IMG/VR virus record: IMGVR_UViG_3300011226_000001
Location: 1-64,000 of that record
Strand: one strand, 5' to 3'
DNA: 64,000 nucleotides
Source: a virus
Lineage: Duplodnaviria > Caudoviricetes
Positions within the stretch are counted from its first letter, which is position 1. Every line of letters starts with the position of its first letter. Below are positions 5,993 through 26,344 of this stretch, piece after piece. The translations under genes and the position numbers were made by a program. The notes beneath the pieces are model-generated. The model made no database searches. It worked only from the letters and a program-made list of their open reading frames with translations, and was not told where the DNA came from.

Positions 5993-6636
5993 CGGCCTCG
6001 GCCTTTGAAGTTCTGACGCTGAGGCTTCGCGCTGAAACGCTGGTTGCCTGAGTGTCTGCCTACACGATTATGCTTCTGACGAACAGCTTTCAGATTAGGG
6101 TCAGGCTCTTTGCGTACACGAGGTGTATCGAGTTCGAAGAAACCCGTCATCTCGGTGCGTCTGATTAGCTTATCGTTCATAGCGCGAGCAGCTTCAATCA
6201 AACCAGAATCACGCACTTCGTAACCTGACTCAAGCGCAAGGCTTCGGGCAAGCGCAGTGTTGTGACCATTAAGCACCAACACGATCTTCTTATCACGCGC
6301 AGCCGCAGACAGGTGAGCCATAGAAAGAATCGTCTTCCCGCCAACTTCGTGTCGATCACTGTCCAGCATCAGAGCGAGCAGCACAACGAAACGTGCTTCA
6401 AGCGTCTGCCCTTCTTCAAACACTGCGTCAGGCAAATCATCGCCTGTATGCGCCGCTTGTTCATCAGCAATAGCAGCACGGCCTTGTTCGAGATAAGGCT
6501 CAATCGCCTGATACGTCATGGTATTAGCAGTCTTGTCATCGTGCGCATCATGAGCCAAACGAGCAGCTTCAATGTACGCACGACCACGCCAGTACGCTTC
6601 AACATCTTTAGCCGTCAACTCAAACTGTTCTGCCAT
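5989..6636 (-). CDS. hypothetical protein
   Basis: 215 aa ORF with AAGGA RBS and a basic C-tail. Confidence 0.65.
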   Translation of the reverse strand: MAEQFELTAKDVEAYWRGRAYIEAARLAHDAHDDKTANTMTYQAIEPYLEQGRAAIADEQAAHTGDDLPDAVFEEGQTLEARFVVLLALMLDSDRHEVGGKTILSMAHLSAAARDKKIVLVLNGHNTALARSLALESGYEVRDSGLIEAARAMNDKLIRRTEMTGFFELDTPRVRKEPDPNLKAVRQKHNRVGRHSGNQRFSAKPQRQNFKGRGR

Positions 6637-19204: not shown

Positions 19205-19851
19205 TAGCTTACTCCATTTTCTACGAGGCGACGCAACTCAATCAGTTGCTGTTCCTGCGTCATCTCAGAATCGAGAATAGAACGCAGGGCATTGTGCGGG
19301 ATAGTGCGCTTCTGGCTGAACGGCAGATTCTTGAGGAATCGCATTGCCATTGCACCAGTCTGCACCGCTTCGATCTGCATGTTTTCGATCAGGCGCATGT
19401 CACCGTTTTCTTCAAACGTAGCGCAGTCACGCAGCAGCTCACCAGCTTCTTCAACAACGATAGACGCGGCGTGAATACATTCTTCTGGCCACGTCGGATG
19501 ATCAGTTTCTGCATCGCGCAGTTCGTTCATGATCAGTTGCATCGCAGCTTGCTCGCGGCCGTGCACGGACTTCTGGAACAACGCCATGTTGTTTGCACAA
19601 TGCGACTTCATCATAGACTGATACTCAGAAGCCTCTGACTCACCGCCGATGTGCTGCAACAGGAAGCAGTTGTTAGGCAGATGATAGATGCAACGCGCCT
19701 GCATCGAAAGAATAGGGTCGCTGTCACTGTCTTCTGGGTGAGGCACAACAATGTCCAGAATCTCAACACCGCGACGGGGGATTTGACCTTCGTTCTCGCA
19801 GTAGCCTACATACAAGAACGAAGACACACGTTTGATTAGCTGCATAGTCAT
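19204..19851 (-). CDS. MazG-like NTP pyrophosphohydrolase domain protein
   Basis: IVVEEAGELL...EAVQTGAMAMRF (ExxE...E helix pair); next to thyA. Confidence 0.55.
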   Translation of the reverse strand: MTMQLIKRVSSFLYVGYCENEGQIPRRGVEILDIVVPHPEDSDSDPILSMQARCIYHLPNNCFLLQHIGGESEASEYQSMMKSHCANNMALFQKSVHGREQAAMQLIMNELRDAETDHPTWPEECIHAASIVVEEAGELLRDCATFEENGDMRLIENMQIEAVQTGAMAMRFLKNLPFSQKRTIPHNALRSILDSEMTQEQQLIELRRLVENGVS

Positions 19852-22157
19852 TTGGTTACACGTCCTTTAACCATAGGAGCCGGTGAGTAGTCGAGAAGCT
19901 GGAACCACTCTGCGTTAGCGTTGTCTAACAACTCTTCTGGCGTCAGGCCAAGAATGTCGTCAGTGATTTCGAGCAGCGGGTACTGGATAGGCTGGCCCGT
20001 AGTTTTCATCACTTCGCTCAGTGCTGCCCACTGCTTCTTCTGTTGTTCGAACGCTTCGAAGTGGTGCGTGTACAGATGCGTGTTGGTCGTGTTCAGCGTA
20101 AACGAACCAACGTTCAACCCAGCCCACTTCGCAATCAGTTGGTGCATTGCGCTGTAGCCCATGATGTTGAATGGTCGCCCGAGCAGCACATCGTTTGACT
20201 TGGTGTTCACCGGAGTTCGCTAGACTCAGGCCGTTCTCTCGCTCGGACATAAAGAGAACCGCTGCATATCGCTATGCAGAACAGACTATATCACAGACCC
20301 AATCATTGGGCCTCTCGCCATTTCGGCTCACTGTTTCGTGAGGCAGATTGCTCTGCGCCGCTTGGCCCTACTCTACTCACCTGCGTTTGGTCTTTCCTTT
20401 GACCCGCACGTTTTCGATAGTCGTTGCGCGTTTACGTTCCGGCTGTTTCACTTCTGACAGGTAATAGATATTCGCAAATTTTGGATTACTGCTATGTGCT
20501 CTATAAGAAAGCGTAGGACGCGGTATACCGAGTGCGTCAGACGCGGCAGATAAAGATTCGTACACGGCACCTTCAACGCTGATTGCTTTGACTATGTTTT
20601 CTTTCCATGAGTCATCGCGTGTTGCGTTTGCGAGTTTGATTTTCACAATAGCTTCTGGCGTGTGTGTCTTACCGTGAAACGAGTTCTTTTCTCCAGTGCG
20701 CGTTCTCGCATGTGCGCGTAACTTCTCACGACCTTCTTCGGTCAAACACGTACCTTGATTTGGGTGTGTTCTACCTAGATTGACTTCACGCAAGCGCTCA
20801 CGTACTTCTGGAGTATGTGTTCTGCCGTACATAGGGTTGTTCTTACCGCTAATCTTTTCGACTCGATCAGCGTAACGCTCAGGGTCACTTTGGATTTTCT
20901 TCCACAACTTCTTTGCGCTGATACTCTTGCCTTTGGCCAACTCTTTAGCTCTAGGATGATTAGTCAAGTAGTCACCACCAGACGCATAGTGCTTCATATT
21001 GAGTAGCAAAGGCGAACCCCAGTATTTCTTTATCAGTGCATCTTCTCGCTCACGCGCTTCATCCAGAGTATCAAACTCTTTGGACTCAACAACAAATGCT
21101 TTCCATCCTTTCTTGCTTGCGTTAAACAACTCTTGCAATGGAGTGTTAACGTGTTTATTTGCAAGCAGATTGGTCATATGTGTTTTTTGGCGCTTGTCGA
21201 TTGACGCAGCAGAGCCTATATAAAATTTACCTGTCTTCTTGTGTACCAGTCTATATACGAATGCCATTGTAACGATCCTTTCTTCGGTAGGTCGTTTAAA
21301 ATTAGCATTCTCAGAACGATTTAGCACAGGATTGTCTCAAAGAGATATTCCCTGTTTAGACGAGTTATTCGACCAAGATTACTCTTGGAAGGCGCTTAAT
21401 GTAACGAACGCATGGTCACAACGATATGTAAGGATGCGTCGGACGGTGCCATACCACGCGCTTCCATCTGCGCTGTTTCATACGCAGTAGGCTGAGTTAC
21501 GTTGAACTCAAACTCAGTGTGGCACGGCGGCAGACCCTGCATGTTCTGGTACGCAGGGTTGAACGCCTGAACGCGAATACGACGAGAGCGAGAACGCGCC
21601 ATGACCTGATGCAGTGCGTTAGCGAACTGGTCAATCTGACCTTCAAACAGAATACGTCCGTCAGTCAGTTGCGTTTCGATATACCCGTCTTCGCGCATAC
21701 GCAGGATTTCGTTACGCACACGAATCATCTCAGCAGTAGGCTCAGAGTGCTGAGGTTGCGTGTAGTCGTAGTACGCTTTCAGGTCAGGCCAGCGACGCCA
21801 CATCTCACCGTAGATAGGACCGCATTCGCCTTCTTCGTCTGCCCACTCGTCCCAGATTTTAGACTGGAGTGTGCTGATGTTCGTGTCACCACGCATGAAC
21901 CAGCAGGTTTCATCGACAGCGGCAAACCAGTTTTTACGTGCCGATAGCAGCGCAGGGAAAGCGATCAGAGTGTTAGACAACTGGAAGCCTACACCAATCA
22001 GAGTACGCCACGTATCTTCGGTGCGGCCGGGATCTGATTCGTCAGTACCACACGCCAGAATAGCGTTGCCTAGGTTGATGTACTGTTCGTCTACGCAGTG
22101 CAGAGAGTAAACTTCGTATTGATTTGGATCGCGCAGATCAAGAGGTTGCTTGTTCAT
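19848..22157 (-). CDS. thyA: thymidylate synthase, two exons (22157-21408 joined to 20198-19848; 366 aa)
   Basis: IWDEWAD, GPIYG..WR, LPPCH in exon 1; the splice gives MR|SNDVLLGRPFN; HLY in exon 2. Confidence 0.9.
20199..21407 (-). mobile_element. group I intron (1209 nt)
   Basis: 5' exon ends in U, intron ends in G; P1 GCGU/GCGC, P10 UCGUU/AACGA; P AAACAGGGAA, Q AAUCCUGUGC, R CAACGACUA (20418-26), S GAUAUAGUC (20284-92). Confidence 0.9.
20377..21267 (-). CDS. intron-encoded GIY-YIG homing endonuclease with NUMOD3-type repeats
   Basis: FVYRLVHKKTGKFYIGSA..R...H; NPMYGRTHT and NSFHGKTHT repeats; C-terminal HTH. Confidence 0.9.
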   Translation of the reverse strand: MAFVYRLVHKKTGKFYIGSAASIDKRQKTHMTNLLANKHVNTPLQELFNASKKGWKAFVVESKEFDTLDEAREREDALIKKYWGSPLLLNMKHYASGGDYLTNHPRAKELAKGKSISAKKLWKKIQSDPERYADRVEKISGKNNPMYGRTHTPEVRERLREVNLGRTHPNQGTCLTEEGREKLRAHARTRTGEKNSFHGKTHTPEAIVKIKLANATRDDSWKENIVKAISVEGAVYESLSAASDALGIPRPTLSYRAHSSNPKFANIYYLSEVKQPERKRATTIENVRVKGKTKRR

Positions 22158-22507
22158 TAAGAGTTCCGACTGTCTTTGTGGTAGATAATGGGATGAAGGC
22201 CGAACGAGAGCGCAGTCTTCTGGTTATTGCTTACAGAATGATGAATGGTAGGATGAAGGCCGAAGTGCGGGTGCCACTCATACACTTCCATATCTTCGGC
22301 GAGATACAGCTTATCGCCGAAGTCGAGACCCTGTACGTTAGGCACAGTCACGGTGTGAATGCCGTTGTTCAAATAGACACGCTCACCAAAAGGCTTACCG
22401 TCTTCGATGATGCGCTCACGACGCACGACAATGAAAGGTGAATCAATGCCGAAAGTCTTTTTCAGCAGTTCGCGGGTTTGTTCGTTGAAACGAATTACAG
22501 GAGGCAT
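22157..22507 (-). CDS. hypothetical protein
   Basis: 116 aa, TAATG-coupled on both sides. Confidence 0.6.
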   Translation of the reverse strand: MPPVIRFNEQTRELLKKTFGIDSPFIVVRRERIIEDGKPFGERVYLNNGIHTVTVPNVQGLDFGDKLYLAEDMEVYEWHPHFGLHPTIHHSVSNNQKTALSFGLHPIIYHKDSRNS

Positions 22508-22848
22508 TATTTGATCTCGTTATAGCGATAACGTAAGACATAGGCGGGCAATTCAACGTAACGCCCGCTGCTTCTTTGAACCAATACAGACGGTGTGAAC
22601 TTGTCGTTCGGACTGTTCGAGTAATATACAAGGCGACACGTCATTGATGGGAACCACTTGTGACGAAAGCGCGTGTCATTCTGTGGGTCCCAGCCGTCTG
22701 CAAATGCTTTGCGCGACAATCGAAACGTGCGACGCTCAAGGTACTCGGTCAGCACAAAGAAACCAATGATAACAACAGGTGCGACGAACGATGAGGCTGG
22801 GCTATCCCAAAACGGACTGTTCCAGATTGCTTTGAGAATGTCCATCAC
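22507..22848 (-). CDS. hypothetical membrane protein
   Basis: One TM segment (FVAPVVIIGFFVL). Confidence 0.55.
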   Translation of the reverse strand: MMDILKAIWNSPFWDSPASSFVAPVVIIGFFVLTEYLERRTFRLSRKAFADGWDPQNDTRFRHKWFPSMTCRLVYYSNSPNDKFTPSVLVQRSSGRYVELPAYVLRYRYNEIK

Positions 22849-23192
22849 TCGTCAACCTCCGGAGGTGCTTCTGCGCCTTTACCCTGAGTCTTCATGTACT
22901 CGGCAATAATCGCGCTGTCTTCGGGGCGTGATTTCAGTTCCAGAGATTCAGACTCGCCGAAGCATTGAAGCGTCGTTAGGTTAATGAAGCCCGCGGAGAT
23001 TGGCTCGACACGCTGGTGGTAGTGATTGTCTTGATAGCCATTGTGCATACCATAGCCACGAATCGCATCACCCATATCTGAGTGCATGATATGGGTTGGA
23101 AAAATGACAGGCAGGTGAACGCCGTCAGTACGCTCTTTGTTTCGCGTTCGGACGAACATCACATACTTAAACACCAGAGCTGTTTGTTCCAT
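22845..23192 (-). CDS. hypothetical phage protein
   Basis: PVIFP..HSDM..SAGF..CFGESESL.L.SRPED pattern common in phage small proteins. Confidence 0.6.
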   Translation of the reverse strand: MEQTALVFKYVMFVRTRNKERTDGVHLPVIFPTHIMHSDMGDAIRGYGMHNGYQDNHYHQRVEPISAGFINLTTLQCFGESESLELKSRPEDSAIIAEYMKTQGKGAEAPPEVDE

Positions 23193-23808
23193 CAGAGGTA
23201 GCCTCTTTGTGATAGATGAAAATGAATTGCGAAAGCAACATCGCTGTTTGCTTGCTTTCATTTACAGTAAATACGACGATTGGATGCGCTTCACCTAAAC
23301 CGAGCACCATTTCAATACGAGCGCGTAACGGGTAGACTTTTGCGACATGTCCTTGGGCCATTAGTTTTTGTGGAGGCTCGTTGCGTAGAGAACTCTCCAC
23401 CCAAATCTCACCCTCTTTCGGCAGAGTGATTCGCGTGTTGGCTTCCATCTGCATCCATGCAAGAGTGGTATTGAATTGTTCCTTATTTTCACCACGACTG
23501 ATATGCGCAAACTTGTGGCAAAACTCGCTGAATGGCCTGTTGTAGATCTGTTGGAAGTCATTCGTGTAGATGACATTGATTTCCCACCCAGCCTTTGAAG
23601 TACCTGTATTGGTCAGACACAGTACAGTATACGGTCGGCCTGTCTTCAAATGCACCCAGACATTGCCGCGATCAAGACGACCGCAGTTATAGTGCTCCTG
23701 TGCTTTAATCAGGTGGCGGTCACGTTCGACCTTGTTCATGACATAACGCCAGATTAGGTAGCACAGTATGATTGCTGGAATAGCTTTCAGAACATCGTAA
23801 AACATCAC
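23167..23808 (-). CDS. membrane-anchored DUF1653-like protein
   Basis: N-terminal TM; WVHLKTGRPYTV...VIY...RPFSEF. Confidence 0.5.
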   Translation of the reverse strand: MMFYDVLKAIPAIILCYLIWRYVMNKVERDRHLIKAQEHYNCGRLDRGNVWVHLKTGRPYTVLCLTNTGTSKAGWEINVIYTNDFQQIYNRPFSEFCHKFAHISRGENKEQFNTTLAWMQMEANTRITLPKEGEIWVESSLRNEPPQKLMAQGHVAKVYPLRARIEMVLGLGEAHPIVVFTVNESKQTAMLLSQFIFIYHKEATSDGTNSSGV

Positions 23809-24348
23809 TCACTCCTTAGGGTGTTGATAGGTGTCGAATACAGACAGGTCGGTGCCCTGACGAATAGCATCAGCGATGATCGAGATGCGCATATCAGTCT
23901 GAGGTGTAGAACCCTGCACCAGACGCTTACGATGGAAATACTGATAGGTCATGTACAGCGCTTCGAGCATCACAGGGCCAGCCGCAGCCAGAACGCAGTT
24001 AGCTTTGCGGTTGTCTTCGCACATCTTATAGCCTGCGTCAGTGCTGTCCAGACCGCTTTGCATCTGACCAAGATGCGTCCACCAGTAGCGCTCACCTTCA
24101 CGTTTCTCACGCAACTCATAGATGCCGTTGCCATACGTTCCGTTCTTTACGTTGACGTAACGTTGAGCGCGGGAGTGTTTGAGATCTTTGAACGCAGGAA
24201 CTTGCTCCTCGTTCTCAGGCACGTCGATGATTTGCACCAACGTGTATTCAAATTTCTTACTGCCTTGACAGTCACAGCTACTGACTTTACCGATATGAAC
24301 GTACTTGCAGTGCTTACAACGATACGCTGTTTGCATCATGTTCTCCAA
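23809..24348 (-). CDS. hypothetical protein with N-terminal Zn-ribbon
   Basis: CKHC...CDC. Confidence 0.6.
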   Translation of the reverse strand: MENMMQTAYRCKHCKYVHIGKVSSCDCQGSKKFEYTLVQIIDVPENEEQVPAFKDLKHSRAQRYVNVKNGTYGNGIYELREKREGERYWWTHLGQMQSGLDSTDAGYKMCEDNRKANCVLAAAGPVMLEALYMTYQYFHRKRLVQGSTPQTDMRISIIADAIRQGTDLSVFDTYQHPKE

Positions 24349-24351
24349 AAC

Positions 24352-24375
24352 AAAAATGGGGCACTAGGCCCCATG
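24352..24375 (-). terminator. Rho-independent terminator
   Basis: ATGGGGC-CTAGT-GCCCCATTTTT. Confidence 0.8.
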
Positions 24376-24377
24376 AG

Positions 24378-24542
24378 TTAGATTTTACAGGCGCCGCTTT
24401 CGCAACCATCAGCATCTTTATCGTCAACGACTTCGCCGCCTCCGTCACGCATAGCTTCGACACGATCTTCTGCGTCGTCTACGCCTGGGATAACTGCGTC
24501 TGCGTTGAAGTAATCTGCTAATGGATTGTTAGGTTGGCTCAT
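24378..24542 (-). CDS. 54-aa acidic peptide ending in an NrdA-like redox tail (not in ORF track)
   Basis: MSQPNNPLADYF...MRDGGGEVVDDKDADGCESGACKI*; followed immediately by a terminator. Confidence 0.65.
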   Translation of the reverse strand: MSQPNNPLADYFNADAVIPGVDDAEDRVEAMRDGGGEVVDDKDADGCESGACKI

Positions 24543-25017
24543 TGCTTTTCTCGTCGTACAATTGTTGGATTTTCTGACCCATCTCGTTCATGCACGTCAC
24601 AGCAACGAGGCTGGCACGACGAGCGAGGATAGGGTCGGTCAAGACGCCAGTGAGAGTGGCATCATCAAAACCCAGAATGTTCATCAGCATAGCAAGACGA
24701 ACACTACCGAGTGTAGATTTAGTTTCCGCGTCACCTGCTTGCGACAGCTTGTTCACAAGCGAGGCACTCAGATCCTGAAACGCAGTATCTACCAGACGCT
24801 CAGTTTCATCGAGATGGTTCGTCAGTAACTCACAACGAACTTCATCAGGAATTTGGAGCTGCATCAGCGCAAGGCCTACAGCCATCTTGCGACGTTTCTC
24901 TTCGGAGAGACTCTCAACAAAACGCGCAGCGTCTTCGTCTGGTATGAGATTCATAAAATCATCCGGCAGACCAAGAGCGCGATAGCGTTGAATCGCAACT
25001 TCTTTAAGATCAATCAT
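24529..25017 (-). CDS. hypothetical protein
   Basis: 162 aa, AAGGA RBS. Confidence 0.6.
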   Translation of the reverse strand: MIDLKEVAIQRYRALGLPDDFMNLIPDEDAARFVESLSEEKRRKMAVGLALMQLQIPDEVRCELLTNHLDETERLVDTAFQDLSASLVNKLSQAGDAETKSTLGSVRLAMLMNILGFDDATLTGVLTDPILARRASLVAVTCMNEMGQKIQQLYDEKSNEPT

Positions 25018-25026
25018 TGATGTTCC

Positions 25027-25797
25027 TTAACGTTGTTTACGGCGCGCTTTCTTTTGGGCGCGTGTTTTGGCACGGAGCTTCTTGCGATCAGAAGCAGAGG
25101 TCGCAGCACGGTCACGACGTTCAGCAGACCACTTACCTCCAGTCGCTTCGTATGAAACATGAACAGTAGTCGGCTGAGGACCTCTCGGATCGCCAGTTTT
25201 GAAATCGACGATAGGTCCTGTTTCAGATTGCAGATAGTGCAGAGGCAAATGCTTTTCTGGCACAGACTGACCTCCACCAGACTCGGCAGGAATAACGCCG
25301 AGCTGTTCACCACTAAGACCGAAGGCCGTAGCAATCATAGCCATAGACAGATCATCTGTCTTCACATCACCAAGATGAATATCAGTTTGCAGCATACGTT
25401 TCCCTGGTGCTACATCAACTTTAATGCGTCCATCACGCGGCAGATTATCCGACATACGAGGATAACGATGCACAACACCGCGAACTACACCCGACGAATG
25501 TTCAAACGTGTCAGAGAGTTCTTCGATGCTACTGCTAGGTGAAGACATGCGACCCATGACAGCATTAGCCATAACCCTGTCTTCGAGTTTAGAGAAGTCC
25601 AAGCTACCAAACTTCTGCTCATGGTCATAACGACGGGCAGCTTCGTGCTGGGCCCTCAACAAGGGATCAGATTCAATCATCTGCACAAGACGCTCAAGCG
25701 ACTTTTGTTGCTGTCTATCGAACGCACGACACGCCTCGTCCTGTTGTTCTTTAGTCAGAGGGTGGCATTTAAAACCTGATTCGAATTTGCTTTCCAT
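25027..25797 (-). CDS. hypothetical protein
   Basis: 256 aa, GAGG RBS, basic C-tail. Confidence 0.6.
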   Translation of the reverse strand: MESKFESGFKCHPLTKEQQDEACRAFDRQQQKSLERLVQMIESDPLLRAQHEAARRYDHEQKFGSLDFSKLEDRVMANAVMGRMSSPSSSIEELSDTFEHSSGVVRGVVHRYPRMSDNLPRDGRIKVDVAPGKRMLQTDIHLGDVKTDDLSMAMIATAFGLSGEQLGVIPAESGGGQSVPEKHLPLHYLQSETGPIVDFKTGDPRGPQPTTVHVSYEATGGKWSAERRDRAATSASDRKKLRAKTRAQKKARRKQR

Positions 25798-25822: not shown

Positions 25823-26344
25823 TTAATTAGACGCTGGTGTTGTTGCAATTACATCATTGATGCGGTCGATGCCTTGCTGCATACGTCGGACAACGCTGTC
25901 CATATCGAGACAGAACATTTTGATCTTCGACGCGTCGAGATGATCAGTCAGGCGATACTCACGCGCGTACACAACTGTCTTAACACCCTCAGCTTCGAGA
26001 TCAGCGAGACAGTTCGGACATGGCGAATCGGTGCAGAACAGGATGTCCTCTTCCTCTGCCCACATGCTGTGTTCTTCCATGCGATTGAGGCAATTCACCT
26101 CAGCATGGATAACGGTGTCGAGCGATAACGTCAGGTCTTCGTTCTCCATGACGTTGCTTGCGCCTGGCTCAGTACCGTTAACGCCGCTGCTCACAATGGT
26201 CGGGAAACCATTATGGAAGTGAATCAGCATTGCAGCAGTCGCACGACGTTTTGACTTTGACGCACCAGCCAGAGTAAACACGCTCGCCATGATGTGTTCA
26301 GCCTGAGTGATATTAATCGGTAATTCGTTTAAGGTGCAGCGCAC
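25823..26344 (-). CDS. dCMP deaminase
   Basis: G.NG, HAEVN and PCPNC zinc motifs. Confidence 0.85.
   Translation of the reverse strand: MRCTLNELPINITQAEHIMASVFTLAGASKSKRRATAAMLIHFHNGFPTIVSSGVNGTEPGASNVMENEDLTLSLDTVIHAEVNCLNRMEEHSMWAEEEDILFCTDSPCPNCLADLEAEGVKTVVYAREYRLTDHLDASKIKMFCLDMDSVVRRMQQGIDRINDVIATTPASN

Follow-up and report, generated by a model that had tools for sequence, protein, structure and literature searches.

The gene and its surroundings

The window, that is, the whole stretch of DNA analysed in this work, covers the initial 64 kb of a virus record of 268 kb, which is complete and has terminal repeats. Around the gene of interest the DNA is ~90% identical to that of Dickeya phage AD1 and 94% identical to that of Erwinia phage pEa_SNUABM_17, both belonging to the genus Alexandravirus. 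The gene (24378..24542, minus strand, stop codon included) starts with ATG and encodes a peptide of 54 residues which ends in RDGGGEVVDDKDADGCESGACKI*. The product has a mass of 5.6 kDa and is strongly acidic (pI ~4.05, with 14 D/E against 4 K/R), and no match was found for it in Pfam.

Three parts can be distinguished in the peptide. The acidic N-half (residues 1-33, 24444..24542, minus strand), delimited in the family alignments A1-A3, contains an acidic/hydrophobic motif, which reads ADYFNADAV in the window peptide and D-F-D-h-x-x-L in most relatives, as well as a short helix-prone stretch, DAEDRVEAMRD; residues 21-33, VDDAEDRVEAMRD, form an acidic helix-prone segment ahead of the second part. 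This is the GGGE motif (residues 34-37, 24432..24443, minus strand), a signature of the family, at whose place NrdA, the large subunit of class Ia ribonucleotide reductase (RNR), has GAED. The third part, residues 43-54 (DADGCESGACKI, 24381..24416, minus strand), is that of the redox tail, with Cys47 and Cys52 in a CX4C arrangement and a terminal K-I.

An intrinsic-terminator-like element (24346..24374, minus strand) begins 3 nt past the stop codon: a G+C-rich hairpin of 7 bp, ATGGGGC-CTAGT-GCCCCAT, occupies 24374..24356 and is followed by a T-run, TTTTGTTTTG. In Klebsiella phage Miami and Yersinia phage phiR1-37, too, a terminator is annotated immediately 3' of the homologue. At the other end of the gene, the Shine-Dalgarno sequence is reduced to a bare GAG located 7 nt 5' of the ATG, and the start overlaps the last 14 nt of the preceding ORF (24529..25017, minus strand). 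Translational coupling between both is plausible, since the ATG sits inside the end of that ORF. Past the terminator, a gene at 23809-24348 (minus strand) encodes a protein of 179 residues with an N-terminal Cys-rich, zinc-ribbon-like stretch (C-x2-C ... C-x-C), which matches phrog_1273, a family of unknown function.

The preceding ORF encodes a protein of 162 residues, with neither a Pfam nor a PHROG match, whose AlphaFold2 (AF2) model is all-alpha with a mean pLDDT of 66, too weak for a structure search. It is kept beside the peptide gene only in Alexandravirus, Sasquatchvirus and Snuvirus. A relationship between this protein and the N-terminal part of the fused Yoloswag-type proteins described below was considered and rejected (BLASTP E 38, hhalign probability 1.8%).

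Two genes of nucleotide metabolism lie on the same strand as the peptide gene. A dCMP deaminase gene (25823..26344, minus strand; PF00383, E 3e-10) is located 1.3 kb upstream, and a thymidylate synthase gene (19848..22157, minus strand; PF00303) is present in two pieces, with profile positions 1-168 matching 21396..22157 and positions 166-264 matching 19848..20210. The ~1.2 kb between the pieces harbours an I-TevI-like GIY-YIG endonuclease ORF (20377..21327) with matches to GIY-YIG, NUMOD3 and I-TevI_DNA-bd, and the homologous gene of Dickeya phage AD1 is uninterrupted (1107 nt). The interruption resembles a group I intron of the td type that carries its endonuclease, but an Rfam search over 19700-25200 returned neither a group I intron nor any other RNA. 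Thus, the features that the initial annotation had read from the letters, namely a stand-alone ORF of 54 codons ending in the RNR redox tail, a terminator directly after it, a weak ribosome-binding site and the proximity of dCMP deaminase and thyA genes, were all confirmed.

Conservation of the peptide gene

The identical protein of 54 residues is encoded by a separate CDS in Dickeya phage AD1 (gp037) and in Erwinia phage pEa_SNUABM_17. Copies in other Alexandraviruses are 91-96% identical, those in pEa_SNUABM_3, Y3 and Snuvirus 59-65% identical, and remoter copies are found in Klebsiella phage Miami, Serratia phage PCH45, Yoloswag and JA11. In Alexandravirus, Y3, Snuvirus, Miami and PCH45 the peptide has a CDS annotation to itself, and every database copy is labelled 'hypothetical protein' (GenBank examples are AD1 gp037, Y3 gp038, Miami gp244 and phiR1-37 g117).

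The close copies differ far more often by synonymous changes than by replacements, with dN/dS values mostly between 0.04 and 0.19 (Nei-Gojobori, in those pairs with enough change). Moreover, the ORF stays intact at identities from 37 to 100% over many lineages, with its non-NrdA motifs also kept, and the module has been found in at least 12 jumbo-phage lineages. The peptide gene is therefore real, conserved and under purifying selection, and the proposal that its conservation as an independent ORF be examined has received a positive answer, with separate CDS in many jumbo phages and low dN/dS. No nrdA-like sequence lies upstream of the gene, so that a decayed nrdA of which it would be the 3' remainder is ruled out.

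Anatomy and fusions of the module family

A family profile was built from nine sequences and searched against 1.84 billion cluster representatives. The search returned 40 clusters (at 50% identity) at E <= 1e-3, 16 of which reached E <= 1e-10, and in every one of the 40 matches the module, of ~45 residues, forms the very end of the protein. Stand-alone proteins of 44-71 residues make up about 25 of these clusters, and the remainder, of 84-296 residues, carry the module behind other sequence. At least three recurrent and mutually unrelated N-terminal domains are found in such fusions (P0009/13/14/39, P0005/11/19/22 and P0006/30/34/38), and some fusions have unique extensions. An initial homologue search for longer proteins gave no scoring fused form; the fusions were found later by the exhaustive profile search.

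In phage records, further fused or divergent members were detected in SA002, SPLA10, phiR1-37 and FBKp24. Natural fusions with differing N-terminal sequences include Yoloswag gp34 (L023:2210-2650), JA11 gp019 (L026:2384-2638), SA002_0950 (L126:1138-1629) and SPLA10_103 (L128:793-1641). Nothing above the Pfam cut-off was found in 10 fused members. The SPLA10-type N-terminal domain, of ~200 residues, is predicted as a moderate-confidence fold which matched no known fold, and for the folded N-domain of the fused relative P0014 neither Foldseek against the PDB nor the ESM Atlas gave a match, feature searches of the Atlas being blank as well. In the AF2 model of one fused member, the N-domain is folded and a disordered linker joins it to the module, whose N-half forms two short helices; the last 20 residues are disordered (pLDDT < 50), with no confident placement of the tail against the N-domain. 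Such predicted disorder is what would be expected of a flexible arm.

Regarding the module itself, Cys47 and Cys52 are invariant across the 41 family sequences of alignment A3, and the terminal Ile (I54) is at least 90% conserved, the family end being -K-I. The GGGE motif is invariant in alignments A1 and A2; in A3 the same is true of G35 and E37, with conservation of at least 90% at G34 and G36, and the motif is absent from the most divergent members, those of phiR1-37 and FBKp24. It sits 9-13 residues before the first Cys, preceded by the acidic, helix-prone segment and followed by a short acidic linker. The proteins end either in C-(E/D)-(G/S)-G-(A/G)-C-K-I, with CX4C spacing, or in C-(E/D)-G-C-K-I, with CX2C spacing. 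In the phages of a single host, Erwinia amylovora, five lineages display five tail variants (CESGACKI, CEGGGCKI, CEGGACKI, CDGCKI and CEGCKI), and thus exact mimicry of the host tail is not required. What is kept family-wide, as judged from the alignments, is an RNR-type dithiol at an acidic, flexible end terminated by -K-I.

The module is shared by four PHROG families (phrog_10239, phrog_24014, phrog_38753 and phrog_14561), all of them listed as 'unknown function'. The window peptide itself reaches no better than E 0.042 on phrog_24014 and 0.57 on phrog_38753, and the Yoloswag-type relatives, which belong to the same alignment as the window peptide, match phrog_10239 at E 1e-10 to 1e-11. The genomic neighbours of the module genes differ from lineage to lineage, and in the neighbourhoods of six stand-alone members no partner, whether nrdB, trx, grx or another, recurred. 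One member of 46 residues, P0025, has its gene immediately 3' of that for a family A DNA polymerase in three contigs (L114, L115 and L116, ~6001-6141); these phage contigs, of up to ~105 kb, also encode a class III NrdD and its radical-SAM activase, and the module is therefore not restricted to jumbo phages or to genomes lacking every class of RNR. A tblastn search of P0025 against phages gave no match.

Resemblance to the C-terminal tail of NrdA

The last 10 residues of the peptide, DGCESGACKI, are identical to residues 752-761 of E. coli NrdA (10/10), and in Erwinia and most other Enterobacterales NrdA ends in the same residues, the tail variant CEGGACKI being that of Pectobacterium and Brenneria. 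When the family was compared with 22 NrdA C-termini by hhalign, the probability was 95.8% and the E-value 7.5e-9, the alignment covering the last 13 columns only. The claim that the peptide carries the NrdA redox tail is thus borne out. The 10/10 identity is a feature of the window lineage and not a requirement of the family, as the variants of the alignment indicate. At the nucleotide level, the tail codons are identical to those of host nrdA at 29-33 of 36 positions.

The resemblance ends ahead of these columns. Nothing in NrdA, where YYQNTRDGAED precedes the tail, corresponds to the GGGE motif or to the N-half, and the Tyr-Tyr dyad (Y730/Y731, in NrdA TLYYQNTRDG) is absent from the peptide, the family having (R/Q)xGGGE there. 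The catalytic ten-stranded barrel of NrdA (PF02867 / PF00317) is likewise absent from the peptide. Two further relationships were discarded. Homology between the 'RDG' of the peptide and the 'TRDG' of NrdA is unsupported family-wide, since hhalign aligns the last 13 columns only, and a reading of the acidic N-half as an NrdB/NrdF docking tail (...DDLSNFQL, ...EDEDWDF) was rejected (hhalign probability < 1% with enterobacterial tails). The NrdA tail by itself makes up a solved chain of the PDB, 1QFN_B (25 residues, E. coli NrdA 737-761); the entry, 1QFN, is reportedly the mixed disulfide of the tail peptide with glutaredoxin-1.

Ribonucleotide reductase genes in the module-bearing phages

The initial annotation had left open whether the phage has its own nrdA, with or without a tail. 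The complete 268-kb genome gave no match to the profiles of the class I/II large subunit (PF02867), the small subunit (PF00268) or the class III enzyme (PF13597), nor to those of glutaredoxin and thioredoxin, with positive controls that worked in all these searches. Accordingly, the option that the peptide complements a tail-less phage RNR does not hold. The original interpretation is otherwise partly supported, in that the gene is stand-alone, conserved and under selection and carries the NrdA redox tail, with a boosting or hijacking of host RNR re-reduction and a titration of thioredoxin/glutaredoxin as candidate roles. Because none of these enzymes is encoded by the phage, the partners of the peptide must be host proteins.

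The same absence extends to related phages. PF02867 was missing from all of the 16 module-bearing jumbo genomes tested (the window phage and 15 others, from at least 12 lineages), which are not phylogenetically independent, so that the RNR-less pattern may partly reflect shared ancestry. PF02867-type large subunits are common in large phages, with at least 5000 among 50,697 records, including one phiKZ-like phage. The RNR-less pattern among the module-bearing jumbo phages is therefore regarded as suggestive. Furthermore, Serratia phage PCH45 (W01), whose tail module lies at 111024-111173, has an orphan nrdB at 124876-125754 (PF00268, E 1e-50, in a frame of 374 residues) and no nrdA. This phage evidently relies on the NrdA of its host and adds to its activity.

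The tail peptide as a possible partner of host ribonucleotide reductase

DNA precursors are made de novo by RNR alone, and the recharging of its active site via the C-terminal tail is a poorly understood and possibly rate-limiting half of the catalytic cycle. In yeast, as Zhang et al. are said to have found in 2007, the R1 tail regenerates the active site of the neighbouring monomer in trans, and Sml1 reportedly interferes at that step. After each turnover, the active-site disulfide of NrdA is reduced by the Cys pair on the flexible tail of the alpha subunit, which is in turn reduced by thioredoxin or glutaredoxin, and this tail competes with nucleotides and substrate for one active-site pocket (PMC11903788). 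A CX2C spacing occurs in the natural RNR tail of B. subtilis (C695/C698; PMC11903788) and in that of eukaryotic R1 (PMC6382339); in the latter paper, Zhang et al. 2007 is cited for the importance of the R1 tail and for Sml1.

On these grounds, the peptide may be viewed as a small, largely disordered, detached and diffusible copy of the redox tail of class Ia RNR alpha. Host thioredoxin or glutaredoxin would reduce Cys47/Cys52, as they do with Cys754/Cys759 of NrdA, and the reduced peptide would exchange with the active-site disulfide of NrdA in trans, adding recharging capacity to the host RNR during replication of the 268-kb phage genome. The acidic N-half and the GGGE hinge would serve as a docking or spacer element and, in the fused proteins, the tail may target the attached domains to the same host partner. 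Since the fused domains lack conserved Cys pairs, the tail is not their private redox arm. That the peptide acts in trans as a tail supporting the host thioredoxin/glutaredoxin-NrdA relay is the interpretation we favour, at somewhat under an even chance, with both the partners and the sign of the effect deduced from sequence. The broader proposal, in which phages that gave up their own RNR adjust that of the host by filling the cell with a diffusible copy of its electron-relay arm, is more doubtful, and so is its mechanistic detail, according to which the peptide takes electrons from thioredoxin or glutaredoxin and recharges NrdA, or gates this step.

Support of the enzyme is favoured over its inhibition because host RNR is all that these phages have for making deoxyribonucleotides de novo, because PCH45 adds an NrdB for the host NrdA, and because both Cys are invariant. 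The invariant Cys pair, its strict C-terminal position and the K-I end, as in NrdA, would favour the relay, and CX4C and CX2C are the spacings used by natural RNR tails, which points to retained thiol-disulfide chemistry rather than mere shape. The dCMP deaminase and thyA context also counts for it. Against the relay count the short span of the NrdA likeness (13 columns) and the occurrence of P0025 in ~105-kb contigs which encode class III NrdD; furthermore, a free tail would have to compete with the tethered tail of NrdA and with substrate, so that inhibition could occur just as well. The tolerance of two Cys spacings fits promiscuous thioredoxin or glutaredoxin better than a tight fit in the active site.

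Two readings can be put aside. In one, the gene would be a relic, without function, of a captured nrdA 3' end or else an ORF that arose by chance, and the shortness of the ORF, its weak Shine-Dalgarno sequence and the nucleotide identity of its tail codons to host nrdA would agree with this. This is very improbable: the low dN/dS and the persistence of an intact frame with non-NrdA motifs speak against it, as do the lack of nrdA upstream, the overlap of the start with the preceding gene and the terminator after the stop. The decayed nrdA remnant raised by the initial annotation is thus ruled out, also by the family-wide N-half and GGGE, the latter absent from NrdA. The other is the detached tail of a split or tail-less phage RNR, split phage nrdA genes, such as that of Aeromonas phage Aeh1, being known; with no PF02867, PF00268 or PF13597 in the 268-kb genome, and no PF02867 in the 15 other module-bearing genomes, its probability is negligible.

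Two other readings carry more weight. The peptide could be an inhibitor or decoy, the free tail competing for thioredoxin/glutaredoxin or filling the NrdA pocket, which would throttle host dNTP synthesis or divert these reductants and, for instance, stop host replication, the phage living meanwhile on host-DNA breakdown products. Jumbo phages often have small bursts, which means that host DNA could cover much of their demand, and phages of one host tolerate both CX2C and CX4C. The pocket shared by the alpha tail and nucleotides (PMC11903788) and the case of yeast Sml1, a small disordered protein that blocks R1 regeneration (PMC6382339), point the same way. Phages lacking RNR (16/16 tested), however, depend on host RNR or salvage, the orphan NrdB of PCH45 points to raised and not lowered RNR activity, and a pure steric blocker would not need two invariant Cys; inhibition is thus judged unlikely, if worth keeping in mind. 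Slightly less probable still would be a portable C-terminal tag or generic thiol peptide, an adaptor to some thiol-disulfide or other partner, not necessarily RNR and possibly involved in phage assembly or a redox step, of which the stand-alone form would be the minimal version and whose likeness to the NrdA tail would reflect a shared solution for recognition by thioredoxin/glutaredoxin. Such a role would account for the fusion to at least three unrelated recurrent N-domains and to unique extensions, for the variable gene neighbours and for a likeness limited to 13 columns. It sits less well with fused N-domains devoid of a conserved Cys pair that could be a redox client, with the AF2 model of a fused relative, whose disordered tail has no confident position relative to the N-domain, and with two traits specific to the NrdA tail, namely the strict -C-K-I terminus and a stretch of acidic residues ahead of the Cys pair; moreover, it leaves the RNR-less pattern and the orphan nrdB unexplained.

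Relation to known systems and significance

The proposed trans-acting relay tail can be set against several known systems. With the NrdA tail itself (E. coli 737-761, Cys754/Cys759) the peptide shares the acidic run, the C-E-S-G-A-C-K-I end, the flexibility and the RNR-type spacing; it differs in being encoded alone, with no catalytic domain and in a genome without RNR, and in having the acidic N-half and GGGE in place of the YY radical-transfer dyad. With the proteins of phrog_10239, phrog_24014, phrog_38753 and phrog_14561 it shares the C-terminal module, the AD1 protein being 100% identical; in the literature searched, none of these proteins has been given a function or connected with RNR. 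To our knowledge, there is no sequence relation between yeast Sml1 and the phage peptide. Both would be alike in their proposed role, that of a small unstructured protein at the step of R1-tail regeneration (PMC6382339, which cites Zhang et al. 2007), whereas Sml1 lacks a Cys-pair tail and is an inhibitor. Finally, poxviruses that encode only R2 pair their viral small subunit with host R1 (PMC2900304), and with such orphan small subunits, including the PCH45 nrdB, the peptide has in common that the virus supplies a part of RNR and borrows the large subunit of the host; here, the part is a functional arm of ~12 residues on a 54-residue carrier and not a subunit.

A search of the full-text literature gave no description of a tail peptide of this kind, of a jumbo-phage RNR tail or of phage small proteins acting on host NrdA. 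What appears to be new, then, is the RNR redox tail as a free or portable protein, the window gene being one member of the family. If the broader proposal is true, the peptide, whose portable module is also grafted onto other phage proteins, would be the first case of a virus mimicking the flexible redox arm of an enzyme, and bacterial RNR would have a new class of small effectors. The peptide would show how large phages without RNR secure or control their supply of precursors, and would give a function to a family annotated as 'hypothetical protein' in dozens of jumbo phages, whose hosts include Erwinia, Dickeya, Klebsiella, Serratia, Salmonella and Yersinia. A natural and widespread free tail of 44-71 residues would, in addition, be a ready probe for the recharging of RNR, with which it could be asked whether a tail works in trans and what its docking partner is. 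If the peptide were instead an inhibitor, it would be the analogue of Sml1 in the bacterial world and a lead for antibacterial peptides.

Distribution of the module and unusual records

Within what was searched, the module family is mostly phage-borne. When 301 sampled Enterobacterales genomes were scanned with the profile, one stand-alone chromosomal copy and one short tail-only match were found. The chromosomal member (L139:1501-1653, plus strand, in Enterobacterales genome G115) has 50 residues and lies beside a UbiK/YqiC-like gene; it starts with MDDFDLDLDHLDFD, ends in DEDDCAGGACKI and has an Ala-rich middle, without GGGE.

In a curated phage collection, all matches of a Miami-type query fell in records of 210-307 kb, with Enterobacterales as hosts in every case except one. 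The exception is a record labelled Stenotrophomonas phage BUCTxx100 (L024, OR529409.1), to be compared with L025 (NC_070950.1). Its locus is laid out as in Klebsiella phage Miami, the peptide being 97.8% identical and the upstream protein differing in one residue, a closeness that is odd given the very different host label.
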